This document shows, piece after piece, positions 13,141 through 59,837 of a stretch of 64,000 nucleotides of DNA. Within the stretch, counting starts at the first letter, position 1. Every line of letters starts with the position of its first letter. Under the pieces are notes generated by a model, which did not search any database, had not been told where the DNA came from, and worked only from the letters and a program-made list of their open reading frames with translations. Location of the stretch: the NCBI GenBank assembly GCA_965228855.1, contig CBDDIJ010000005.1, positions 512,001 through 576,000 on the forward strand, read 5' to 3'. This DNA comes from Candidatus Obscuribacterales bacterium. GTDB taxonomy: Bacteria > Cyanobacteriota > Vampirovibrionia > Obscuribacterales > Obscuribacteraceae. A program made the position numbers and the translations under genes.

Positions 13141-13360
13141 GGCATCGGAGCGCTCATCGCTCCATACGTTGGGGAGAATTGGCTTCTTTCCCCGACCGAA
13201 TTTTCAGACCGCAGATTAAAAATGGCGGCGGTTCATAGAATTAACGTCTTTATCAGTCAGCTCAAGTGACTTATACGCGCGTGGGTAAATTGACAAGGTA
13301 GGAAAATAATACGTGCTGGGTATACCAGGCTTGGCTAGGCGTACAGGTACAGGAGTGATC

Positions 13361-14761
13361 ATGCCGGAAGACGACAAGGACCAGAATTTGAACTCGGCCC
13401 TGAATTTGTGGCAAGAGGGAGTCGACAAGGCAGCGGGCGACCTCGAGAAGATTGTCAACAACTCAATCGATCAGCTCACACGCTACAGCGAGGAGCTTGA
13501 GAAATCGCTCGAATCACAACTCAAAAAAATCGCCAGTCAGACGAATTCAATGGTGGAAAACAACGTCGAAGAACTGGGGTCCAAGCGCGACGAACTCAAC
13601 GAGCGACTTGCCGAATTCGAGCGCAGCGAAGCAGACGAAATTTTGAAAACCGCCCAGGAGAGCCGCGAGCGCGTTTATCTTCTGGTAGATAAAACCAAGC
13701 AAGAACTAACAGCGAAGCTTTCAGAAACGCTCAAGAAACTGAATGGCCTGGCAGAAAATCCGCAGGGACGCTTCGCCAATTTTACGAACAAAAACCGCGA
13801 AGCAATGAGCGAATTCGCAGAAGCAGCGCGCGATAAGCTAGCCACGCAAAAGACCACTCTCGAGAGCGGTTTGACCAATAAATCCAAAGAACTCGACAGC
13901 CTGGCGGACGAATCGGTTGGTTTATCCAAGCAAAATATCGAGAAAAAACTGAGCGAGTATGAAGAAGGCTTCGACAAGAAAATCGCCGAGGTCCTCGTGC
14001 AACTCGATGAGATGCTGGCCATGACGACCAAAGCGACGGAAGAGTCAACCACCGAAGGTGCGACGGATCTCGAGGCGTGCCGGCTGGAGAATTCCGAATT
14101 CCTCGCGCACAAAGTTGACGAGTGGAAGACGAACATGGAAGTGCTGCAACACAGCTTTCAAGAAGACCTGGAGAGCATGCGCGAGGAAACACTCTCGAAC
14201 CATAGCCGCCGCCTGACTTACTCCGTCACGGAGGCAAAGTCGTCGATCAATCAAGTCGCGAACGACGCTCTCGCCAGAATTACCGGCAACCATCGCATGT
14301 ATTACAGTTCTTTGAAGCGGCTCGAGCGCAAATACGAGGAGCAAGTTGCTCGGCTGTTCAGCCGATTGGAAACTGTTATTTCCGAAGAACGTGATTTGGC
14401 CGGCGGCGGCAGCGCTCAATCGACTGAAGAGATAAAACAGAAACTCAAATCCCAATTAAAAATTCGTGGCAGCGAACTTGTTAAAACCTACAGACGGCAA
14501 GTCGATCAGATGGAAAATGATTTTGCCAGAGCTAGCACCACTTCATACGAGCGCATCGACAGCATCAGATTGCAGACGGTGGAGTCGCTGGAGAAGCAGG
14601 TTCGCATCATTAGAAGCGAATTAGACCGAATCGAAAAATCATTCAAAGTCGAACTTTCGCAACTGTCCATCGAGTTGCCGGAGATCGAAGAACGCGGTCG
14701 GGTAGCGGCTATGTCCGTCCAAGCCTACCTCGAATCATCTCTCACTTTGGATACAGACTAG
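13361..14761 (+). CDS. Hypothetical all-helical protein with 11-residue (hendecad) periodicity
   Basis: Long ORF with AGGAG RBS before ATG 13361; almost no Pro; hydrophobic residue every 11 aa; no signal peptide or TM segment. Confidence 0.85.
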   Translation: MPEDDKDQNLNSALNLWQEGVDKAAGDLEKIVNNSIDQLTRYSEELEKSLESQLKKIASQTNSMVENNVEELGSKRDELNERLAEFERSEADEILKTAQESRERVYLLVDKTKQELTAKLSETLKKLNGLAENPQGRFANFTNKNREAMSEFAEAARDKLATQKTTLESGLTNKSKELDSLADESVGLSKQNIEKKLSEYEEGFDKKIAEVLVQLDEMLAMTTKATEESTTEGATDLEACRLENSEFLAHKVDEWKTNMEVLQHSFQEDLESMREETLSNHSRRLTYSVTEAKSSINQVANDALARITGNHRMYYSSLKRLERKYEEQVARLFSRLETVISEERDLAGGGSAQSTEEIKQKLKSQLKIRGSELVKTYRRQVDQMENDFARASTTSYERIDSIRLQTVESLEKQVRIIRSELDRIEKSFKVELSQLSIELPEIEERGRVAAMSVQAYLESSLTLDTD

Positions 14762-14833
14762 AACAATTTTGGAAACCGTTTCAACTGGCTCCTCACAAGA
14801 GCCGCACCGGATGTGGAATAAGGAGACGCTCGC

Positions 14834-16165
14834 ATGACCCTGGCAGGTAAGAAACTCCAAATTATCTATGATGGCGGGACAGAACAAATGTCCAGCATCG
14901 AAACCGACGCCATCGCAAAACTGACTGGCTCAGCCAATAAACATGCTTCGCAACAACGCAGTTCCGCGATGAATCACTCAAGCGTTGTTGAGTCGAAGTC
15001 AAAAGAGATTGAGGGCGAACTTCACGGGATGATGGATAAGTCCGTCAAGAAGCTCTCCAAGCTTAAGGAGCAAGAGGTCGAGAAGTGCAAGGAACATACT
15101 GAATCCTTGACTGAAGAGCTTCGCAGAATCGGCGAGTTGGTTCGGGAATCCGTTGATTCGATCAAAGCAAGTCTGGGAGATCGATTGAACGACGTTAAAC
15201 ACGAGTTGTCGAGCGAGTTTGATAAGACTTACGAGCAGAACGTTGCCGGTCTGATGGGCAGCAATTTCGAAGGCAGCAAAGAGATTCGCTCGCACGCGAC
15301 CGGGCTCACCAACAACCTCCAGCAGAAATTAGACCAGAGCGTCTGGGAGCAGAAGGGAAGCGAAAAACAAATTGTCGCGCAGCTGTACAAAAACTATATG
15401 CAGAAAGCAAGCGCGATCGAGACCCACTTCTCACAGATCATGCAAAAGCTGTCGGGCGAGTTTCAAACTCAATACAAAACGGTTGAAGAGGCCTCCTCGA
15501 AAGCGAAGGTCAACATCGGTGACGATATCGACAAATGTTTGACAGCGATCGAAGAAGCAAGCTCCGATGGTGAACGAGATATCAACGCATTCTTCGGAAA
15601 ACTCGTCAGCGAGCACGAATCGGAGCTGGAGAGTGAATTCGAGAAAGTCACAAGAGAGGTCACCCAGGCGAACTCAACTGCCACGACTGATTTGAAACAG
15701 AAGACGCAAGACTACAGTTCAAGCCTGTTAACAGCTGCGACTTCCGCGCTGGAGTCATTGAAAACCTCGTGCAACGACACCGTGAAAAACGCCGATACAA
15801 TGCACACAGATTTTCTCAATCGCATCGAAGAACGAGTCAAGGGCACGAAATCCACTCGCGACCAACTAGACGCAACAAAGACTGACACCATCAAAGAAAT
15901 TTGCGACGAGCTCGCGACCATGCGCAAAGGTTTCGAGGCTAACCTTGATAGACTCACTCGTGAAGCAGACGAGAGTGTTCAAACTGTGGCTGCCGAAGTC
16001 GAAAAGGAAATTAAACAGGCGCATACGCGATGCTTGAACAAACTGGCTGATGATGGGCAATCAGCAATAGACTCGATCAACAAAGAGACTACTAGAGTTC
16101 TCACGATGATTGAAGACCACAAGAGAGCAGCGCTTGATGAAATCACACAGGCCGCGCGCTCCTGA
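14834..16165 (+). CDS. Hypothetical all-helical hendecad-repeat protein
   Basis: 443 aa, TAAGGAG RBS, no Pro, long unbroken 11-mer register. Confidence 0.88.
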   Translation: MTLAGKKLQIIYDGGTEQMSSIETDAIAKLTGSANKHASQQRSSAMNHSSVVESKSKEIEGELHGMMDKSVKKLSKLKEQEVEKCKEHTESLTEELRRIGELVRESVDSIKASLGDRLNDVKHELSSEFDKTYEQNVAGLMGSNFEGSKEIRSHATGLTNNLQQKLDQSVWEQKGSEKQIVAQLYKNYMQKASAIETHFSQIMQKLSGEFQTQYKTVEEASSKAKVNIGDDIDKCLTAIEEASSDGERDINAFFGKLVSEHESELESEFEKVTREVTQANSTATTDLKQKTQDYSSSLLTAATSALESLKTSCNDTVKNADTMHTDFLNRIEERVKGTKSTRDQLDATKTDTIKEICDELATMRKGFEANLDRLTREADESVQTVAAEVEKEIKQAHTRCLNKLADDGQSAIDSINKETTRVLTMIEDHKRAALDEITQAARS

Positions 16166-16224
16166 ACACATATGTAAGAACTCCTTGGTTACAAATTTAA
16201 GAACGAAAAGAACGGGACGATAAT

Positions 16225-19200
16225 ATGCATTCAATGCTTCGCCAAAACCAGGTTAGACAACAGGATGTGAAACCATACATCCGGACCTTCACCCGCAATA
16301 ATCCGATGGATTTGAACGAGTGGGCGAAGGAAGAAGGCGGGCTGTTCGAGCCTGGCACGCTGATTTTCTTGCTGGAACCGGCCAAACGACCACCAGGCAT
16401 GTCGTCATTTGCACGCGGTCAAGCTCCGGGTGCCGGCGGGGCGGCCGATGCGGCGCAGGATGGCTACCGAGTAAAGGATATGTGCGTCGTCGTCGATAAA
16501 ATCGACGGGAAGTGCTGGGTGTTAGCTATATCACCAAGCGCGTTTGAATTGCGCTTCATAGACACGTTGTTCCGTGAGAAAACGCAGAAAGCGTTCCTCG
16601 AAGGTCTGGATTTTCAGTATCTGGCTTGTGCACCACGGCCGGTGCTCAACGACCAGCAGCAAAAAGAACTCAGGCAGCTCTCGACCTTGTACAGTAAGTC
16701 CGGATCGAGACGCACTATTGCTCAAGATGGAGTCGGTCCGGAAGAACCGGCCAGGGCGATGCTCAGTTTCCTGGGCGCCGACTTATCCTCTGTCGGCAAA
16801 CAGATGATTGAACTTGGTTTAATTTGTAACCTGATCTTCTCCCCGGAAGGTGTGCAGGAGAACAAGGCACAAAGTCAGGTGAAATCGTGTTTTTCACCGA
16901 TTCTAGCAACGGACAAATTGAAAAAGTTGCAGCAATCAACGCCCGCGGCGCCAGCTCCTACCCCTGCCACGGAGAGCAGCGATGAGCAGGTATCTCTGCT
17001 GTCGCCAACATATTTAGAAAACGAGGCGCGCGAAGCCGCAGACTTCCTTGCCTACAATCAGCCAGAGCCAGGAGCGGCTCCAGCTAGCGCAGGGGTCTGG
17101 ACTTCCACTCCAGCCGCGCCATCTAGCACCACCCCTGGTGCCGATGAGTTCAAGGCGTTGACGCCACCATCATTTGATCTCGGTGGCTTTCCATCCGGCG
17201 GTCCAGGCGGAGGTCAGCCCGGAATGATGTCTCCGGACATGCCGGCTATATTGACCGGTGAGCATGCCGTCATCAGTGTAGATCAGAAGTTGAACACCGA
17301 AGACGCAAACGGTTCGAAAGTTCCGGCGTTGCCTGCATGGTACATGACTACTCATAACATCAATGAGATGAATGAAGTGGCGCTGAGACGTGCAGCGGAG
17401 AGTCCGACGGAGATGCCGGCTGGTCTGGACAAACTCGAGTCTGAGTTGTCTTACGACGCCCTTCCTGTCGTGGATGCTCGCTTTCGTCCAGGAGCAGAAC
17501 CGCCAACAGCGCAACCCTACCCAGGACCGCCGGATACGCTGGTTCCCGGCGCTCAGGCCCAGATGGAACAGGACGCTTCCGGAGCGTGGGCACAACCTCC
17601 GCAGGCAGCGGCACTCGGACAGGCCAAAGATTTCAACGACTCCATATTTGAAGGTACTGGGGGACGAGGTTCTTTAGAAACCAATCCCGATGCGGTCCTG
17701 GAGCAGTCAAAGAAAACGCGAGGTCAAGCCGGCGACTGGCAGCAAGTCGATAGTGGTTCGAGCGGTTCCGCCTTTGTCTCGCCGGGAAGCACAGCTCGTT
17801 CTCAACCGGAAATTCCCGATCCAAGTAATCTATTTGATAGGCTCGGCGGAACGCAAGCACCGGAAGAGGCACCACCTGCGGCACCATCATGGGCAGACGG
17901 CGAGCGCGGCCGCCCCACTAATCTCAAAGACATGCTCACGGCTGATAGCGCTGTTTTCACAACAGATAGCGGCAAACTCAAGGAAATCACTCCGGCTCCG
18001 CAGCCTGAAAACCCGTCTCTTGAAATGCCACCGCCGGCGGTGGTTGAAACGCCCCACCTTGAGGAGCCCGCGGCCACGGACAGCACCACCGAAGCGCCTT
18101 CACCATGGATGAACTTAGCCAAAACGGAGTCAGACTCAGCGGTCGAACCCGCGAGTCCGTGGGACTCACCTAAAGACCCAGCTGGACAATCGTCGTCGAG
18201 CTGGGATGCGTTCAATCAGCAAAACCCGATAGAGCAGCTAGACATTCTGGAAGCTCCGGAGGCGCCCACACCGCCTTCGGATCACGTGAACGAACTTGCC
18301 GCAGCGATGCGTGGCTTGATGACTTCTCCTGACGCGATCGAGCCTGGTACGGCAGTGGATCAAACTGCTGCCGGCGGGGCAGCTGGCGCGGGAGAGTCGC
18401 TACCGGAAGCCACTGGTTCTGAGGACTTGTTCGGCGACGTCATGGATAAAGTCATGGACCTGGCTGAAACGGCTCAACCCGTTGAAGCCGAATCGACCGA
18501 AGCACAACCGAGTGCGGAAGTAACGGACTCCGAATTTGACATGTTCGAAGACGGCAGAGACCAGACAATGGATCTCGATTCAGCCCTTCTGCAGCGCTTG
18601 AGCAGCGGACCCGCGACACTTCACACCACCCAACCTGCAGAGACGGAGGAAGCACCAGCAGCGCCACCAGTACCGTCGGTGCCCACCTTCTCGACTGACA
18701 CTTCACTGGTATCGTCAGCGATGGCTGCCCACGCACAGGCGATGGTAGATCCGGAAGCGCAGGCTGAACCAGCCGACGAGACGCAGCTCTCGGCGTCTGA
18801 CGTGACCGCTACTACAGAACCGACAGCATCCGAGTCTGTAGCATCGGAAGTTTCTGAGCCGGAACCGAAACCGGCTCCAGCTCCGACCCCATTGAGACCC
18901 GGTCGTCGTCGCACAGCGGAACTGCGAGCAGGAATCAAGCCGCTAGAGCTTCCAGCAGATGCACTGCTCGAGCCAGCCGCGGCAGAGCCGGAGGCACCCG
19001 CCGCACCGGTCACACCTGAGGCTGAGGCTCCCGCAGAGCCCGAGTCAATTTCCCCGCAACAGGACGTTCCAGAGACCACAAACGTCACTCCTGATGTCAC
19101 ACAGGGAGAGGATGAGCCATCCTCATCATTATTGGATGCAGCGCCACTCGACATATCCAGGCGCGGTTCGATGGAGCAGATAGAGGCTCCGACGCCTCCA

Positions 19201-20886
19201 GCGGAGGAATTAGTGGAACCTGAAGCAGCGGTCGAGGAACCATCTGCCTCAGAGTCGACGCCACCGGCACCGGTATCAGAAGTTTCAGAACCCGCGGCTC
19301 CGGAACCAGCGATCGCTGAAGCGGTTACAACGACGGTTCACACCGACTCATCAACGTCTACACCGGCACTCACGACTTCACAGGAAACCGAGCTTGCGGA
19401 TCTGGGAGACGGTTTCGACGATGAAGAGGATGAACAGGATACCAGGAAGCCCGCACCTTACGGACAAGAATCCAAGCTCACCGCATCCGGTGTCATGCGG
19501 TCGCATCAGCCCACCAACGATCCAAAATTAGTCATCTCAGAGTCGACACGCTTCATGGCGAGACTGAATCAACGTCTTTCAGAAGCGGACAAAAAGCTTT
19601 CGAGTCGATGTGAACAATCGAGAGATCGCTTACTCCGAGAACTAGACGCCCTTGTAGAGGAAGCCCATAAGGTCGAACGCCAGAATGAACTGAGCACCGG
19701 TGCTCTCACTGAGCAGCTCATGACCCATCTGGAGACGGTTTCAAGCGAAGTGAAAGCCCGCATTGAAAAGACCTCCCAGCAAAGTCGCAAGGAACTGAGC
19801 GAATTGATTCAGATGGCCGAAAACACGGTCACCAAGATGCATACCGATTTGAAGAAAGAGCTGGATGGTGCCGAAAGCACATTCCAAGCCGACTCCGATG
19901 CACTCGCAGAAGCAACGCGTTCGGAACTCAACCAACATGCGCAAGAACGCATCAACGACTTCAATCAAAAGCTGGAAGAGATTTCGAATGCACTAGAGTC
20001 GGTGTACAAGCACCACATCAATGTTTTGATGACCCGCTTTGAGAAATTCCAGACACGATTGAATGAAGAGGTAGATGCAATTATCAGCGCACTCGACCGC
20101 AACGTCGGCTCCATGACCGTCGAAATCGATGGTTCCTGGGATCGCGCCTCAGAGAAATTGATGGCGAGCCAGACCGAATTCGGAAATAGCGTAAATTACC
20201 TCGTTCACAGTTGCCGTGCCGAGTTGAAGCAGGTGCATCTGGAGTCTTACGCGAAGAGGGTTTTGCCGCAACTTCTCGAAAACAAAGACATCTTCCGCAC
20301 GATGCTGTTGGACATGAAGCGCAACTTCGAAGAGCAGTCAGCCAACCTGAGAAAGACTCAGCTTTCCAGCCTGGCGGATAGCATCACAACTTCGAAGACC
20401 GAGTTAGACAACCTCACCAAGGAGTGTCTCAACACAATCGAGTCGGTTGGCAAAGGTCAGCAGTTCGGGCTAGAGGAGTTGTTTAACAGCACAAACGCTC
20501 GACTTGAAGAGATCATATCGACAGTCGAAACCCGCCTGAAGTCTGCAAAACAAGAGATCACCGACAACGATGAAGCCTGCATGAAGACATCGGAAGCGTC
20601 GAGAGTGGAAGATGAGCCTGCGTTCTCACGCGAAAAGCAAGCTGCCATCGCCGCTCTCAACGAATGCAGAACCAAGGCGGACAACGCACTCGAAACTCAT
20701 ATCAGCTCAAGCTGCCTGGATCTGGAGCATCTCAGCGAAGAGATGCAGGAAGATTTGGCGAAACAGCGCCAAGACTGGACAGCGCAGGTTCGCACAACAG
20801 CTGACGAGAATATCAATAAGGTGAAACAGGCTATCCAGGACGCCTTCCAGGCGATCGACTCGGCAAAGGAAAAGCACATGGATTGA
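16225..20886 (+). CDS. Large protein: ~235-aa globular N-domain, ~860-aa acidic Pro/Ala/Glu/Ser disordered region, ~455-aa hendecad helical C-domain
   Basis: 1553-codon ORF with three compositionally distinct blocks; start may be GTG 16267. Confidence 0.88.
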   Translation: MHSMLRQNQVRQQDVKPYIRTFTRNNPMDLNEWAKEEGGLFEPGTLIFLLEPAKRPPGMSSFARGQAPGAGGAADAAQDGYRVKDMCVVVDKIDGKCWVLAISPSAFELRFIDTLFREKTQKAFLEGLDFQYLACAPRPVLNDQQQKELRQLSTLYSKSGSRRTIAQDGVGPEEPARAMLSFLGADLSSVGKQMIELGLICNLIFSPEGVQENKAQSQVKSCFSPILATDKLKKLQQSTPAAPAPTPATESSDEQVSLLSPTYLENEAREAADFLAYNQPEPGAAPASAGVWTSTPAAPSSTTPGADEFKALTPPSFDLGGFPSGGPGGGQPGMMSPDMPAILTGEHAVISVDQKLNTEDANGSKVPALPAWYMTTHNINEMNEVALRRAAESPTEMPAGLDKLESELSYDALPVVDARFRPGAEPPTAQPYPGPPDTLVPGAQAQMEQDASGAWAQPPQAAALGQAKDFNDSIFEGTGGRGSLETNPDAVLEQSKKTRGQAGDWQQVDSGSSGSAFVSPGSTARSQPEIPDPSNLFDRLGGTQAPEEAPPAAPSWADGERGRPTNLKDMLTADSAVFTTDSGKLKEITPAPQPENPSLEMPPPAVVETPHLEEPAATDSTTEAPSPWMNLAKTESDSAVEPASPWDSPKDPAGQSSSSWDAFNQQNPIEQLDILEAPEAPTPPSDHVNELAAAMRGLMTSPDAIEPGTAVDQTAAGGAAGAGESLPEATGSEDLFGDVMDKVMDLAETAQPVEAESTEAQPSAEVTDSEFDMFEDGRDQTMDLDSALLQRLSSGPATLHTTQPAETEEAPAAPPVPSVPTFSTDTSLVSSAMAAHAQAMVDPEAQAEPADETQLSASDVTATTEPTASESVASEVSEPEPKPAPAPTPLRPGRRRTAELRAGIKPLELPADALLEPAAAEPEAPAAPVTPEAEAPAEPESISPQQDVPETTNVTPDVTQGEDEPSSSLLDAAPLDISRRGSMEQIEAPTPPAEELVEPEAAVEEPSASESTPPAPVSEVSEPAAPEPAIAEAVTTTVHTDSSTSTPALTTSQETELADLGDGFDDEEDEQDTRKPAPYGQESKLTASGVMRSHQPTNDPKLVISESTRFMARLNQRLSEADKKLSSRCEQSRDRLLRELDALVEEAHKVERQNELSTGALTEQLMTHLETVSSEVKARIEKTSQQSRKELSELIQMAENTVTKMHTDLKKELDGAESTFQADSDALAEATRSELNQHAQERINDFNQKLEEISNALESVYKHHINVLMTRFEKFQTRLNEEVDAIISALDRNVGSMTVEIDGSWDRASEKLMASQTEFGNSVNYLVHSCRAELKQVHLESYAKRVLPQLLENKDIFRTMLLDMKRNFEEQSANLRKTQLSSLADSITTSKTELDNLTKECLNTIESVGKGQQFGLEELFNSTNARLEEIISTVETRLKSAKQEITDNDEACMKTSEASRVEDEPAFSREKQAAIAALNECRTKADNALETHISSSCLDLEHLSEEMQEDLAKQRQDWTAQVRTTADENINKVKQAIQDAFQAIDSAKEKHMD

Positions 20887-54028: not shown

Positions 54029-54925
54029 CTAATTTGTCGCCTTGAGGACAGACCGAGAAACGGCAGCCAGAACCTGATCACGCTTGCTTGAAGAACCAGG
54101 AGCATCGGAGAGAAAAACGGCAAGTATGACTTTATCGCCGTTCGGCTTTGTGATGATGGCTACGTCATTTGCGCTGCCGCGCCCGCTTTTAACTGGACCG
54201 GTGCCCGTCTTATGTGCAACTTTTGTGCCCGTTGGGACGCCAGCTTTTATGCGATTTACGCCGGTTATTGCCTTATGCATCATGCTCAGCAATGTTTCGG
54301 TAGATTTAGGCGACAAAGTCTTTCCTTCCTCGAGTTTCAACAGCAACTGGCAGATAGCCTTGGGGGTTGCGGTATCGAGCAACTTATCTTCGGCCCCGGG
54401 CTGAGTTAGTTGTTGATAAAGACGATCAACGCGAATTCCTTCGATGTCATTGTCGGTGAATACCTTATTTATGGCTTCAATTCCTCCCACCGTGCGCGTC
54501 AAAACATCAGCAGAACCATTATTGCTGTTGCAGATGGTGCGTTCCAGGAGCGATTGGACACTGCATGATTTCGTATTTACAGGCATTTTGTCCGGCACGG
54601 AGCTGTTTCTGATCGCAAGCACATCCTGCTTTGAGAGCTTGATAGGGGCATCAAGACTGAGCTTTCCGCTATCTACTTGCTGTAGAACCGCGATTGCGAT
54701 AGGAAGTTTGCCTACACTCTGCATCCGATACGGGGTGTCTCTATGTAGATAAAACGAGTCACCGGTTTTTACATCGTAGGCGCCCACTCCGAGCGAGCCG
54801 CCGGAAGTCTTTTCGATTTTCTGGAGTTCCTTTTGTAAGAGAGGTTTATCCAGGCTGGCTTGAGCCGGCAGCGCAAATGCACAAAGCGTAGAGAGCGCGA
54901 TCGCTATTGAATGAATGTTTTGCAT
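54029..54925 (-). CDS. Class A beta-lactamase-fold serine hydrolase (atypical omega loop)
   Basis: Signal peptide; SVGK (SxxK), SNN (SxN), HKTGT, RVDR and DTATP motifs. Confidence 0.88.
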   Translation of the reverse strand: MQNIHSIAIALSTLCAFALPAQASLDKPLLQKELQKIEKTSGGSLGVGAYDVKTGDSFYLHRDTPYRMQSVGKLPIAIAVLQQVDSGKLSLDAPIKLSKQDVLAIRNSSVPDKMPVNTKSCSVQSLLERTICNSNNGSADVLTRTVGGIEAINKVFTDNDIEGIRVDRLYQQLTQPGAEDKLLDTATPKAICQLLLKLEEGKTLSPKSTETLLSMMHKAITGVNRIKAGVPTGTKVAHKTGTGPVKSGRGSANDVAIITKPNGDKVILAVFLSDAPGSSSKRDQVLAAVSRSVLKATN

Positions 54926-55049: not shown

Positions 55050-55514
55050 CTATGCTGGTTCTGTTTGGGCAATGCGCTTCCGAAACTCACGCAACCCCTC
55101 GTCGAGGTCCGCAGTCTGCCGCAGGTCTGATGAACTCACTAAATCTACCGTCTCGTTGATCTGAATTAGTTGCGACAATCCAATTTCTGCGGCTACTACA
55201 GAAATTCTCGACAATCGGACGAAATACTCGCGAAGAGCCAAATCATTCAAATTTGGCATTAGCTGATCGAGCCGATTCTGAATTTGCAGCAGCAATGTGT
55301 TGAAATCATTTTGAATCCCAGCTTCTTGATAGTGTTCGTTGACCTTTTGAAGGTCTCCATCGAATCGGATTAGATTCGCAACCAGATTGCATACGGCAGA
55401 GTCGATCTCGACAAGCTCATCATCACTTACTTCAGTTCGAGCCTTAGGCAAAGTCTGCTTCAAGTGGTCTGTAAGCATTCTCTGCGCTCTTTCAACGCGT
55501 TCTTTGTTATTCAT
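55050..55514 (-). CDS. Hypothetical helical protein
   Basis: 154-aa ORF filling the gap between genes; no recognisable motif. Confidence 0.6.
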   Translation of the reverse strand: MNNKERVERAQRMLTDHLKQTLPKARTEVSDDELVEIDSAVCNLVANLIRFDGDLQKVNEHYQEAGIQNDFNTLLLQIQNRLDQLMPNLNDLALREYFVRLSRISVVAAEIGLSQLIQINETVDLVSSSDLRQTADLDEGLREFRKRIAQTEPA

Positions 55515-55626: not shown

Positions 55627-56493
55627 TTAAACTGTAACGCGCTTTAGATGCGCATCAATCTCTCTCGTGGTCTGTTCCGATTGCTGCCAGAGTTTCCGTG
55701 CAAGCTGTGCGTCTTGCGATTCCTTTGAAGATGCCACCACTTTTTCTTTGACGAAGTAGTTACCTGACACGCCATCTACTTCGGGCGAGGTCGCGAGATA
55801 AATGATAGTCTTTGCGCCTTCCTCTGCGGTGATTGAGACGAACGCGGTCATCAGGTTGAATATTCGACCGGGAATGCCGTTGTTCGCGCCAAAATTTGTC
55901 GAGACAACGCCGGGATGCATGGAATTCGCTGTCACACTTGTGTCTGACAAACGCTTCGAAAGTTCAACTGTGAACAGAATATTTGCAAGCTTTGAATTAC
56001 CGTAGGTAAAGTACGGTACGCGGTTTTTCTCGTCGATGCAATGATCGGGATTTAGACGCGCGCGTTTATGCGCGTCAGAGGAAACATTGATGATACGAGA
56101 GGGAGCGCTCTCTTTGATCAAGTCGAGCAATTCTTCGGTTAACCAGAAATAGCCGAAGTGATTTAACGCCCAGGTCATTTCCAAACCGTCAACGCTGCGC
56201 TCATCCTTAAAGAAAACAGCTCCAGCGTTATTGACTAAAACGTCCAGCCGATCGAACTTCTCTTTATACTGCTGAGCAAGCTCGATTACGCTTTGACGGG
56301 AGGACAAGTCCGCGACAAAATAACTCAAGTCGCCACCACCTTCGGTAGCAATCATTTTTGCCAGGGTATTTTTGCACCGATTTTCGTTGCGACCGACAAT
56401 CACAACGTCCGCGCCCTGTCTTGCGATTTCGACTGCAGCAACTTCACCGATTCCGGCAGTCGCTCCAGTGATAAGACATCGTTTACCCTTCAT
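55627..56493 (-). CDS. SDR oxidoreductase (retinol dehydrogenase-like)
   Basis: ITGATAGIG, LVNNAG, NVSSDAH, YGNSK, HPGVV.T. Confidence 0.93.
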   Translation of the reverse strand: MKGKRCLITGATAGIGEVAAVEIARQGADVVIVGRNENRCKNTLAKMIATEGGGDLSYFVADLSSRQSVIELAQQYKEKFDRLDVLVNNAGAVFFKDERSVDGLEMTWALNHFGYFWLTEELLDLIKESAPSRIINVSSDAHKRARLNPDHCIDEKNRVPYFTYGNSKLANILFTVELSKRLSDTSVTANSMHPGVVSTNFGANNGIPGRIFNLMTAFVSITAEEGAKTIIYLATSPEVDGVSGNYFVKEKVVASSKESQDAQLARKLWQQSEQTTREIDAHLKRVTV

Positions 56494-56562: not shown

Positions 56563-59500
56563 TCAGCGACTGTTCAGATAATCTCGTAACCGCTCAATCG
56601 CAACCTTCCATTTCTCAGGAGGGAGACTGAAACATAACCTCGCCCAATCACCACTACGCGACCACTTTCCTGAGTTAATCAGCAACTTGGACATTTTAGC
56701 AAGCTCATCGCGCTGATCCGCCATTTTTGCAATGACGAATAAACCACCGCGGTACGGAGTATCAAGTCCATCATCGAGTTTATGCTCTTTTAAAACCTGT
56801 AGCAGTTCGTCACGCTGCGAGGTCAGCAACTTTCTTGCATCGGACAGGTAGGTGTGAACTTCGTTTTTAGCAGCGTCTATGTCAATCAGCCCGTGCGGCG
56901 CCTCTTCGAGAAAGGCAGAGTAAAGATTATCCCAGGCCCGCAATATTGATTTCGGAGGCAACTCGATTCGCGCTTGAATCTCATGAGCGAATGATTGATC
57001 CGGACAGATCATGAAGCCGGCGCGCAATCCGCCTGCAGCAAACGCCTTCGATGTACCATCAGCGAGGAAAAGGTATTTTGATTTATCAGAGGACGCAAGT
57101 CCTGTTCCAAAACTGAGGAATTGCGGAGTCCAGGCACCAAGGCGATAATCGCTCAGCATAAAGAAAATTTCGTCAGCGAATAAATAAATCTGTTGACTGG
57201 CGCAAAGGTCAAGAATTGATTTAACGGCGTTAGCGTCAAACATAAGACCGCTGGGATTATTCGGCTGCGTGAGCCACAGCAAGTCAGGTTTCTTCGGAAG
57301 CTTATCGATAGCCGCCTTTGTTATGACGAAGCCGTTGCTGTGGTCGGTCTCTACTGGCAAAATCTCAGCGCCGTGATAAACGACAGTTGGATAAATGCAT
57401 CCGTAGCTTCCGTTCGGAACCGCCACCACGGGCGGTCTGCCGAGGCGAGCGGCGAGCGTTCTCAATAAAGCACCGAATAACGGATACAGTCCCTGACCTA
57501 GTACAACTCGATCGGGAGTGACCATTTGCCCCCGAGTGAAGTGCGTGTAGGAAGTAACTCGCTGGCGCAAAAGTGAGGGCAAAGCGTCGGACGGTTCCTC
57601 AACAAAGCCTTTTACAAGTCCCTTCACGAGCAAGTCTGGAACAGGATATTCAAACTCACCATAGTCGAGCCGGATCAATTCCGGGTCCTCGACCGAGATC
57701 GGTTTTGGAGCAAAAACTTCATCGCTTGCAGCAGAGAGAAACTCTTCTCGATACTCAACATTCTTCAGTTCGTTCTGCTTCAACGGGCACACTTCAGGCG
57801 CGGGGAACGGGAAGGAAAGCAGGTCGTCGAAAAGCCACTCATAGTAGAGCTGGCTGGGATAGGGAATTCTGGAATAGGTAAGTTCCGACGCGACATCGAA
57901 CTTTTCGCTCCAGTCGGATGGAGCATTGATAAGGAAACTCAGCTCCAGGTCCGGGCACACTGTGTTTTTCACCAGACCGTAGAGGAAGATCACGTTGCTC
58001 GGCATCTTCATTTGCGATGCAATACGCAACGTCATGTTCGCTTCGAGACTGGAGTCGATATCGAAGTTGGCGGAATCGTCGATTATGTAAAACCGCTCGG
58101 GGTGCAATCTCGCCTGCTCGAACAGAGCGCCCACGTTGATCATCGAAGGACGAGTCATTGAATTGGGAGCCAGTATCAAGAGGCGGGGGGCAAGCGCATT
58201 GTCGAGCTCGAATATCTCGTGCAAATCATCGTTTGCCGATGTCAAATTCAAATGAGTGTATCCGGTGCTAGAGAATAGCTTGTCGTAAACGGAACGAAGC
58301 GATTGAGAGATTAGAACGTTATCGCCGGCACGCGCCACCATATCCAGTATCATTGAAAGCAATACGCGACGCTCGGGTGCGACAAAGATATCGTCGGGCT
58401 CCAGCGCAGTGTGGCAATAGATGCGAAGAAAGCTAGCAAGCCTTTTTCGCAGACTCATGTCGCCGCGTTCGTGCGGATACGGGAGAGCTTTAGATTTCAG
58501 AAGCGAACCAGATAAGCGCTCCAAAAAACTCATCTGCTCTTCCGACATTCGCGAAAAATCCAGTTCCTTTCGCAAAGAATCGAGCTCCAACGCTTTCAAG
58601 TTGCGCACAAAACCGAAGGTGCTTTTCTCGAAGCGCGTATTCGCTTCATACACAAGGAGATCGTGGTAAATCTGCCGATTCTTCTTGAGCAGTTTTACAG
58701 CAGTGTCTGCGCTCAATGATTGGCGCGAATGTTTTCCAAGAAAAAAGTGGAATTGAATTCCGTGCGCCTTCTCTAGTTCCACGAGCGAGGCAAGATCGGT
58801 ATCATCCGCTTGGGCAATGCGACGACTCCAGACGATCTCAGGTTGGAAACCGCGACGGACAAACATTGATTCAATCGCATGGGGACCGGGTCTTCCACCA
58901 AGGATCAATGTCACTTTTCCATTCGGCTTCAAACAAAGTTGCGACTGTTCGAGGGCACGAGCGATAAGAGGCAGTCCAAATCGATCTTCAAGAATGCCTT
59001 GCTCGAAGCAATAATTCGAGAGGTCGTATAAATCGCGTTCGCTCAAACGTTGCTCGAGGTCGTCTTCCTCTTCTTTCCCGGGATGCAGAACTTGGGGAAT
59101 GCAACCAATGATGTGATCGAAACTGTCCTTAGAATCGATGATTACCTGAAGTAAATCCGATTCCATCGCACGAAAACAGCCAACAATCGGCATCCCCGAT
59201 TGGCTCAAAATCATCGAACCGTCGGGACGTGTACCGTTGAGCCAGGCATTCAAACGCGCGGTCATGACTGCGACCGGATTGATATCGAGTCCAATGACTT
59301 CCTTAACTTGCGTCTTTGCTAACAGAACAAGACTGATCCAGCCAGACCCGGTGCCGAGTTCTACTACACGAGTTCCATGAAACTGTTCGGGATATTTGAG
59401 CAAGCCCTCTGCAAATGTCTGCCCCCACATCTCCGGAGAGAAAACAGCCGGCGTCAAAAACAATCGAATCGGCTGTTCCAAACCAGGAACGTCGACAGCA

Positions 59501-59676
59501 CGCATCATGAGATGCGGATATTTTTTCTGCGCGCAAGACTCTGCCAGACGGTGGAGCTCGCCTATTGCATCCAGACGCGTTTCGGTTTCATCCAGCCTGG
59601 CGAGCAGAGCTTCGAGCGCTCTCATGGACGCTTCCGGCGACCTGGCTGATTCTATCTGTTCTGTTATATCAATCAT
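56563..59676 (-). CDS. Plant-type methionine S-methyltransferase (MmtN-like MTase fused to PLP aminotransferase-like domains)
   Basis: PEMW..TF.EGL, ELGTGSGWIS, GLDINP, ESDLL, GCIPQVL.P, LSNYC..QG..ED.FGL.LIARA, GGRPG, QADDTD...LVE.EK; C-terminal QPNNPSG, ADEIF, SKAFAAGGLRAG. Confidence 0.88.
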   Translation of the reverse strand: MIDITEQIESARSPEASMRALEALLARLDETETRLDAIGELHRLAESCAQKKYPHLMMRAVDVPGLEQPIRLFLTPAVFSPEMWGQTFAEGLLKYPEQFHGTRVVELGTGSGWISLVLLAKTQVKEVIGLDINPVAVMTARLNAWLNGTRPDGSMILSQSGMPIVGCFRAMESDLLQVIIDSKDSFDHIIGCIPQVLHPGKEEEDDLEQRLSERDLYDLSNYCFEQGILEDRFGLPLIARALEQSQLCLKPNGKVTLILGGRPGPHAIESMFVRRGFQPEIVWSRRIAQADDTDLASLVELEKAHGIQFHFFLGKHSRQSLSADTAVKLLKKNRQIYHDLLVYEANTRFEKSTFGFVRNLKALELDSLRKELDFSRMSEEQMSFLERLSGSLLKSKALPYPHERGDMSLRKRLASFLRIYCHTALEPDDIFVAPERRVLLSMILDMVARAGDNVLISQSLRSVYDKLFSSTGYTHLNLTSANDDLHEIFELDNALAPRLLILAPNSMTRPSMINVGALFEQARLHPERFYIIDDSANFDIDSSLEANMTLRIASQMKMPSNVIFLYGLVKNTVCPDLELSFLINAPSDWSEKFDVASELTYSRIPYPSQLYYEWLFDDLLSFPFPAPEVCPLKQNELKNVEYREEFLSAASDEVFAPKPISVEDPELIRLDYGEFEYPVPDLLVKGLVKGFVEEPSDALPSLLRQRVTSYTHFTRGQMVTPDRVVLGQGLYPLFGALLRTLAARLGRPPVVAVPNGSYGCIYPTVVYHGAEILPVETDHSNGFVITKAAIDKLPKKPDLLWLTQPNNPSGLMFDANAVKSILDLCASQQIYLFADEIFFMLSDYRLGAWTPQFLSFGTGLASSDKSKYLFLADGTSKAFAAGGLRAGFMICPDQSFAHEIQARIELPPKSILRAWDNLYSAFLEEAPHGLIDIDAAKNEVHTYLSDARKLLTSQRDELLQVLKEHKLDDGLDTPYRGGLFVIAKMADQRDELAKMSKLLINSGKWSRSGDWARLCFSLPPEKWKVAIERLRDYLNSR

Positions 59677-59837
59677 TTGCACGAACTGAGTTTACTTCAA
59701 ATCGAAAGGTTCTTCTTGATTGACAACCATGAAAGAATGGAATAGCCAGAAATATTTATTTCGCCCATTACTAGACATACAACAGGTCTGTTATCCTATT
59801 CTAATTAACCACAATTCAGGAATGGATACGGCGGGCA

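Follow-up and report, generated by a model that had tools for sequence, protein, structure and literature searches.

A fused methionine S-methyltransferase of Candidatus Obscuribacterales with a predicted pyridoxal phosphate site that bacteria keep and land plants have lost

A 64,000-nucleotide (nt) stretch of Candidatus Obscuribacterales DNA (positions 512,001 to 576,000 of contig CBDDIJ010000005.1, assembly GCA_965228855.1; here, the window) encodes a three-part protein of the fused “Group III” methionine S-methyltransferase (MMT) family. The best explanation for this protein, and one considered reasonably probable, is that it is a bacterial fused MMT, with an N-terminal domain that forms S-methylmethionine (SMM) and a C-terminal domain that likely binds pyridoxal 5′-phosphate (PLP) and carries out a second reaction on an amino acid. 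Judged by alignment across the family, bacterial members generally have an intact PLP site, which plants have secondarily lost.

The gene lies on the minus strand in an uninterrupted reading frame (Table 1). Its start is ambiguous between a GTG and an ATG 6 nt further in, with no clear Shine-Dalgarno sequence upstream of either; a database protein 99% identical to it is 1037 amino acids (aa) long. The open reading frame (ORF) and every motif quoted for it in the initial annotation were found again in the translation: GCIPQVLHP at residue 193, LSNYC..QG..EDRFGLPLIARA at 221, GGRPG at 262, and QADDTD at 291, followed by QPNNPSG at 806, ADEIF at 836, DGTSKAFAAGGLRAGF at 875, and RLCF at 1015. The description there of a full-length plant-type MMT homolog also holds, since the protein aligns end to end with plant MMTs (E 5.5e-90 for that of Selaginella, P0182), and its motif blocks align with those of 9 plant sequences. 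Its length of 1039 aa and its order of domains, an S-adenosylmethionine (SAM)-dependent methyltransferase and then an aminotransferase-like region, are those of Group III (~1000–1100 aa). A search of 1.84 billion proteins found 124 relatives at E<=1e-30 among the representatives of a 50%-identity library, far beyond chance. Pfam recognizes Aminotran_1_2 (PF00155) at residues 705–1032 (85.3 bits, cut-off 19.7) and gives weak generic methyltransferase matches at 78–160; no NCBIfam model reaches its cut-off (the best, GntC, scores 76 bits vs. 415), so that the protein has no curated name. A pseudogene is ruled out by the intact frame and by the presence of the gene in 73 of the 107 Obscuribacterales genomes searched with the window protein as query, including 30 of the 39 of high quality.

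The methyltransferase domain is homologous to MmtN, whose structure (7vvv) aligns with residues 80–344 (~265 residues, E 6e-6). The GxGxG motif for SAM is present (G110, G112, G114). The SAM-binding residues of MmtN are listed as Asp69, Ser101, Leu102, and Cys121 in PMC9135737; Asp69 and Cys121 correspond to Asp133 and Cys194 here, while Ser101 and Leu102 fall opposite Arg and Ala, in a gapped and low-confidence stretch of the pairwise alignment. The motifs of this domain are nearly identical in the window protein and the plant MMTs, and 37 of the 48 invariant columns in a 44-sequence alignment lie within residues 1–349, making the methyl-transfer site the most constrained part of the protein and one common to the plant enzymes. 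The latter are described as forming SMM in PMC9135737 and PMC11464771. Because the best-conserved site is thus shared with plant enzymes of known activity, SMM formation is the likely first reaction, and the N-terminal domain is predicted with good confidence to make SMM from methionine and SAM.

Clustering of this domain with HemK/PrmC-type enzymes, a possibility raised in the initial annotation, was checked and rejected. The protein has no [NDS]PP[YFW] motif, with GCIPQV in the corresponding region; TIGR03534 scores 36 bits against a cut-off of 199; and HemK structures match residues 10–146 only, which is the SAM-binding stretch. In a methyltransferase-domain tree rooted with 4 short methyltransferase-only representatives, the fused MMT family, including the window protein, stays together (Shimodaira–Hasegawa-like approximate likelihood ratio test, SH-aLRT, 99). 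Other fusions of the domain also occur: some representatives of 1200–2450 aa (in the range P0189–P0221) carry an MMT-like methyltransferase domain in mid-protein, matching the query over residues ~10–350 only.

The C-terminal domain resembles the class I aminotransferases of subgroup I-gamma. Lys879, in the sequence DGTSKAF, aligns with the Schiff-base lysine of Thermus thermophilus aspartate aminotransferase (AspAT), in NGAAKAF, and Asp837, Asn809, Arg887, and Arg1015 are all present. From AspAT, we take the Asp to contact the pyridine nitrogen, the Asn O3′, Arg887 the phosphate, and Arg1015 the α-carboxylate of the substrate. A residue table over an alignment of 83 full-length family members (72 non-plant and 11 from land plants) agrees with the initial proposal that the PLP lysine and its partners are intact in this protein. 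Profile searches of the PDB match the domain over its full length to aspartate and aromatic aminotransferases (E ~5e-28), and to 1-aminocyclopropane-1-carboxylate (ACC) synthases (E 6e-25). An AlphaFold model of the domain is of high confidence (predicted local distance difference test, pLDDT, 94.6; predicted template modeling score, pTM, 0.93); with Foldseek it matches whole aminotransferase chains at template modeling (TM) scores of 0.78–0.81 and ACC synthases at 0.77–0.79, and a VIA fold search gives Z 39.0 and 38.0 for the two groups, respectively.

The block between these two domains was described at the outset as degenerate and aminotransferase-like, and this proved to be real. When the 83-member alignment was split at query coordinates, hhalign matched the profile of residues 350–655 to that of 656–1039 with a probability of 98.3% (E 1.2e-14, 204 columns), which shows the middle block to have arisen by duplication of the PLP domain and subsequent decay. 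The VIA search with a model of both domains covered essentially residues 290–690 of that model only, and the fold assignment of the middle domain is therefore that of hhalign. In class I aminotransferases, the Tyr of a Y-x4-G-x3-LR motif (AspAT Tyr70) is lent to the PLP phosphate of the partner subunit. In the middle copy, the Asn and the phosphate Arg are gone, and a Tyr (Tyr402) is present, whose Y(+5)G(+5)R spacing matches that of “Y-appa-G-ipe-L-R” in T. thermophilus AspAT; the C-terminal copy lacks the Y..G..LR motif and has Glu at the Tyr position. Tyr402, Gly407, Ser604, and Arg605 are invariant in 38 of 38 bacterial sequences, as are the PLP residues of the C-terminal domain. This complementary decay of the two copies suggests that they form an internal pseudo-dimer with a single active site, to which the C-terminal domain would contribute the cis residues and the middle domain Tyr402. 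Modeled as one chain, the two domains (690 residues) give a pLDDT of 93.8 and a pTM of 0.94; the latter indicates that their mutual position is confidently fixed, in a rigid two-domain model.

An intact lysine was presented in the initial annotation as a peculiarity of this protein. It is instead the rule among bacterial members: the complete PLP residue set is found in 67 of the 72 non-plant representatives and in none of the 11 from land plants. Among ORFs taken from genome loci, the set is complete in all 59 from the Obscuribacterales clade that cover the C-terminus, and in all nine from other phyla. It is on the non-plant representatives and these 59 clade relatives that the view of an intact site as the general bacterial state is based. 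The five non-plant representatives in which parts of the set are gone (P0184, P0191, P0192, P0196, and P0204) would be independent decays outside plants.

On the plant side, the statement in the initial annotation that plant MMTs lack the Schiff-base lysine was correct for every land plant sequence in the alignment (the search with the Selaginella MMT having brought in more than 100 named plant MMTs): position 879 is T, T, Q, F, Q, S, S, F, F, L, and F in these 11. Tyr760 is likewise found in none of them and Arg887 in one; Tyr402 is kept in five, being relaxed together with the loss of the lysine. Among the bacterial proteins, the full PLP set and the trans Tyr are strictly kept down to 28% identity, which is the reason for proposing a working second site; such strict retention among sequences 28–43% identical argues for selection on the PLP site. 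From these alignments and models, the C-terminal domain is considered likely, if less securely so than SMM formation by the N-terminal one, to bind PLP and to be catalytically live.

One alternative is that the methyltransferase is the only catalyst, and that the PLP domain is a sensor or scaffold in the manner of MocR/GabR proteins, adjusting the enzyme or helping to assemble it and binding PLP and perhaps an amino acid, with the plant scaffold working without a cofactor. Land plants retain ~700 residues of both aminotransferase-like domains after losing the lysine, which implies some PLP-independent role for them. In addition, MocR-type families are among the NCBIfam matches of the window protein and the GabR effector-binding domain among its structural ones (Z 30.7); no pathway context is conserved around the gene (see below); and the residue equivalent to AspAT Tyr225 is Phe. 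The MocR/GabR effector domains also share with it the aminotransferase fold, the retained lysine, and their occurrence within a fusion protein; they are, however, fused to a DNA-binding domain and regulate transcription, whereas the fusion partner here is an enzyme. All the catalytic-type residues, among them Arg1015 and the trans Tyr402, show little or no variation across bacteria, beyond what cofactor binding alone would need, and the nearest matches in both sequence and fold are true enzymes. A purely sensory or structural role is therefore thought unlikely.

If the PLP site is indeed catalytic, the following sequence of reactions can be proposed. The N-terminal domain would methylate methionine with SAM, yielding SMM; the PLP pseudo-dimer site would act on SMM, either transaminating it to the 2-oxo acid or releasing dimethylsulfide by γ-elimination; and the product of a short-chain dehydrogenase/reductase (SDR) gene downstream would reduce the carbonyl product. 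ACC synthase catalyzes the analogous reaction on SAM. SMM is preferred as the substrate of the PLP site because fusion to the enzyme that makes the sulfonium leaving group is chemically sensible; this choice is a tentative one, and would sooner prove wrong than right. More doubtful still is the wider scheme, in which bacterial MMTs in general would be two-step machines, methylating to the dimethylsulfonium and then acting on SMM with a single-site PLP pseudo-dimer, the Obscuribacterales having an SDR to reduce the carbonyl, and in which the plant protein would descend from a different bacterial branch, with its second site switched off in plants.

An AGGA immediately precedes the ATG of the SDR gene (Table 1), and the 69-nt gap between the MMT and SDR genes contains nothing resembling a terminator or promoter; the two genes are probably co-transcribed. 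An SDR homolog directly follows the MMT gene, with a gap of 0–75 nt, in 30 of the 59 clade loci that have at least 900 nt of downstream sequence, and is 1.6 kb away in one more.

Several observations weigh against this proposal. The Tyr225 of AspAT usually bonds O3′ of PLP; its place is taken by Phe840 (in ADEIF), as it is by Phe in nearly the whole family, and the chemistry may be weak or unusual as a result. Aminotransferases, ACC synthases, C-S lyases, and decarboxylases score alike in sequence and fold searches, which therefore do not separate the reaction types. The SDR gene does not directly follow the MMT gene in the other 29 of the 59 clade loci, nor in any of the 8 loci from other phyla with room for it, and it may be only a lineage-specific neighbor in a region broadly syntenic within the clade. 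No conserved gene of methionine, SMM, or dimethylsulfoniopropionate (DMSP) metabolism was found near the MMT gene at the window locus, the clade loci, or those of other phyla. Finally, in the methyltransferase domain, the methionine-binding residues of MmtN are poorly matched: Glu127 corresponds to His200 (Asn in plants), Arg132 to a gap, and Glu250 to Gln, in parts of the pairwise alignment that are themselves weak and gapped.

The last of these points could indicate that the bacterial proteins use a different methyl acceptor, such as selenomethionine, another thioether, or an amine, in which case the window protein would be an MMT homolog but no SMM synthase. Two of the MmtN methionine-binding positions are unmatched in the pairwise alignment, and PMC9135737 describes what SMM does in Group III bacteria as difficult to predict. 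The same paper, however, counts these bacteria among the organisms taken to S-methylate methionine, and the methyltransferase motifs are almost letter for letter those of the plant MMTs, so that another acceptor seems very improbable.

In another alternative, the PLP step precedes methyl transfer. It could produce methionine from 4-methylthio-2-oxobutyrate, as at the end of methionine salvage, and pass it to the methyltransferase domain, or could deaminate methionine, with reduction by the SDR and methylation of the resulting hydroxy acid to follow. The E. coli protein YbdL, whose PDB title assigns it a methionine aminotransferase function, is a close structural match to the C-terminal domain (Z 35.3). 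As given in PMC11306096, an aminotransferase, a reductase, and an S-methyltransferase carry out the first three steps of the transamination pathway to DMSP, and this locus encodes one candidate for each. On the other hand, the methyltransferase domain is most similar to that of plant MMT, which methylates methionine itself; half of the clade loci and all the other phyla examined lack the SDR; and the SDR belongs to a generic PRK06197-like group, rather than to a known 2-oxo-acid reductase family. A PLP-first order is accordingly rated as quite improbable, and methylation to SMM followed by the PLP step remains the preferred one.

The suggestion that the host might be a sister lineage of the cyanobacteria was right: Candidatus Obscuribacterales belongs to the Melainabacteria, a non-photosynthetic lineage that is sister to the oxygenic cyanobacteria. 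Among 301 genomes sampled evenly across the phylum, 5 had a match to the gene, the window's own included, and none of 123 genomes from a small-genome family of the same class had a match. A search of one genome per prokaryotic species found 339 stretches encoding a relative; the best 80 of these 339 include, beyond Obscuribacterales, members of the Myxococcota, Planctomycetota, and Acidobacteriota, and a Sericytochromatia genome. Of seven other genomes from the window's own genus, only three carry the gene; as the four that lack it are 87–95% complete, it is dispensable and was recently lost or gained. Clade-typical MMT genes (54–57% identical) were also seen in records labeled as Proteobacteria, Flavobacterium psychrophilum, and Oculatellaceae metagenome-assembled genomes (MAGs; loci L033, L038, and L095), probably mis-binned or mis-labeled contigs.

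A FastTree phylogeny of 74 full-length sequences has three groups, and IQ-TREE (LG+G4, short search) recovers the same three from a chosen subset of 46 (12, 7, and 21 from the respective groups, plus 6 plants). Myxococcus xanthus falls in group A, and the Obscuribacterales clade (support 100) makes up group B. Group C (SH-aLRT 100, branch length 0.70) contains the land plants, as a single clade, together with bacteria such as the cyanobacterium Moorena and a Myxococcales MAG; the Selaginella MMT is 38–41% identical to its group C bacterial relatives, and 30% to the window protein. A tree constrained to join plants with Obscuribacterales, a grouping chosen for the approximately unbiased (AU) test after the tree had been seen, is rejected (log-likelihood 210 lower, p-AU 1.9e-5). 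In the rooted methyltransferase-domain tree, the Obscuribacterales clade branches first, with moderate support (87).

It had been suggested that a host from a cyanobacterial sister lineage would bear on the origin of plant MMT. It does not do so directly: with plants nested in group C and the AU test rejecting the joint clade, the Obscuribacterales are ruled out as the sister or source of the plant protein. By these trees, their clade is an old, separate branch of the MMT family and not the donor of the plant gene, whose origin is to be sought in group C. Within the cyanobacterial phylum, each of three classes has a different branch of the family. Obscuribacterales form a clade by themselves; a Sericytochromatia copy (L097, the same as L004) is group-A-like, 39% identical to P0124; and one further locus of the phylum (L006) has a group C copy, 44% identical to that of Moorena and 36–37% to those of plants.

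Compared with known systems, the window protein shares its overall plan with plant MMT (EC 2.1.1.12; Group III of Peng et al., 2022, PMC9135737), having the same length class and three-part domain order and aligning end to end at 26–30% identity. The plant enzymes, on another branch, lack Lys879 and Tyr760, mostly Arg887, and often Tyr402, while it keeps all four. The bacterial Group III MMTs, such as that of M. xanthus (P0121, named a putative SAM:L-methionine S-methyltransferase), have both its architecture and an intact PLP set, but are only 32–34% identical to it; its clade is separate, well supported, and here confined to Obscuribacterales, and is the only one with an SDR gene directly downstream. 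The homology with stand-alone MmtN of Groups I and II (7vvv, 7vvw, 7vvx) is limited to the methyltransferase domain; MmtN is a trimer of ~300-aa subunits without aminotransferase-like domains, whereas ~690 further residues are fused to the domain here. Finally, the subgroup I-gamma aminotransferases (T. thermophilus AspAT, 1b5p; Streptococcus mutans, 4my5) and ACC synthases (1b8g, 7dlw) share the whole length of the C-terminal domain in profile and fold, along with the Lys, Asp, Asn, and both Arg; they are homodimers with two sites, each using a Tyr from the partner, whereas the window protein apparently has a fused, decayed copy and one site, with Phe840 in place of Tyr.

Plant-like MMTs with the same dual-domain structure are reported from some Deltaproteobacteria and Oligoflexia in PMC9135737, which cites Williams et al. 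(2019); only one of four Group III strains made DMSP, and the Group III gene was not linked to those downstream of it. Neither PLP nor Melainabacteria is mentioned in that paper, and a literature search that mostly did not extend to subscription journals found no paper that treats the PLP site of the family or reports the family from Melainabacteria or Obscuribacterales. What is new is probably the host lineage and its separate clade, within a known family, and an unstudied PLP site that is likely live and general to the bacterial members.

Table 1. Features of the MMT locus and other genes of the window discussed in the text.
Feature	Position	Strand	Details
Whole MMT-family ORF	56563..59682	-	1039 aa from GTG 59682; 1037 aa from ATG 59676; stop codon 56563-56565
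SAM-dependent methyltransferase domain, MmtN/MMT-type, ~residues 60-349	58636..59505	-	ELGTGSGW (GxGxG) at 108, Asp133, GCIPQV (Cys194), LSNYC, GGRPG, QADDTD
Middle domain, degenerate aminotransferase duplicate, residues 350-655	57718..58635	-	own PLP-site Asn and Arg gone; P-Y402-x4-G407-x4-R412 and S604-R605 kept
Codon of Tyr402, middle domain	58477..58479	-	predicted to reach in trans to the C-terminal PLP site
C-terminal class I (subgroup I-gamma-like) PLP domain, residues 656-1039	56566..57717	-	Y760, N809, D837, F840, S878, K879, R887, R1015; PF00155
Codon of Lys879, predicted Schiff-base lysine	57046..57048	-	from alignment with solved aminotransferases
SDR gene	55627..56493	-	69 nt downstream of MMT, same strand; Pfam adh_short; NCBIfam PRK06197-like, below cut-off
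154-aa ORF	55050-55514	-	follows SDR gene
Class A beta-lactamase-like gene	54029-54925	-	Pfam Beta-lactamase2, E 2e-42
Three consecutive long ORFs (482, 443, 1553 aa)	13313-20886	+	A-over-T skew 0.14-0.25

The conserved neighbors of the MMT gene within the clade are LTXXQ, caspase-TPR, Ser/Thr kinase, OPT transporter, MOSC, and MFS genes, none of them tied to methionine metabolism. In other phyla the neighbors differ by locus, and include kinases, a molybdopterin oxidoreductase, YchJ, AhpC, and a glycoside hydrolase. In the window's own genome no stand-alone homocysteine S-methyltransferase was seen; the domain occurs in one ORF the size of MetH and in another fused to methylenetetrahydrofolate reductase (MTHFR), and nowhere else. 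The 154-aa ORF after the SDR gene has no Pfam or NCBIfam match, and is present also in a 99%-identical relative; beyond it, ~1.6 kb downstream of the MMT gene, is the beta-lactamase-like gene. Elsewhere in the window, the three consecutive long ORFs with strong A-over-T skew follow genes for 2-oxoacid dehydrogenase E2 and E3, and have only sub-threshold, apolipoprotein-like (helical repeat) matches.

The conserved PLP site, the Tyr probably contributed by a decayed duplicate, and the decay of the same residues in plants turn what had been a vague “C-terminal aminotransferase domain” into a concrete candidate for a second active site, and they date the loss of the site to the plant lineage. Should the domain be a sensor or scaffold only, the window protein would be an ordinary member of its family. 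The two-step scheme, if true, would amount to a bacterial route not yet described, leading from methionine to dimethylsulfide, to a precursor of DMSP (e.g., 4-dimethylsulfonio-2-hydroxybutyrate), or to ACC. One route to DMSP and dimethylsulfide starts from SMM, which is also the hub of the plant SMM cycle, and Obscuribacterales are frequent inhabitants of sludge, biofilters, and fresh water. If the second reaction released dimethylsulfide, or made a sulfonium osmolyte, they would thus be a further, non-marine and non-photosynthetic source in the organic sulfur cycle.

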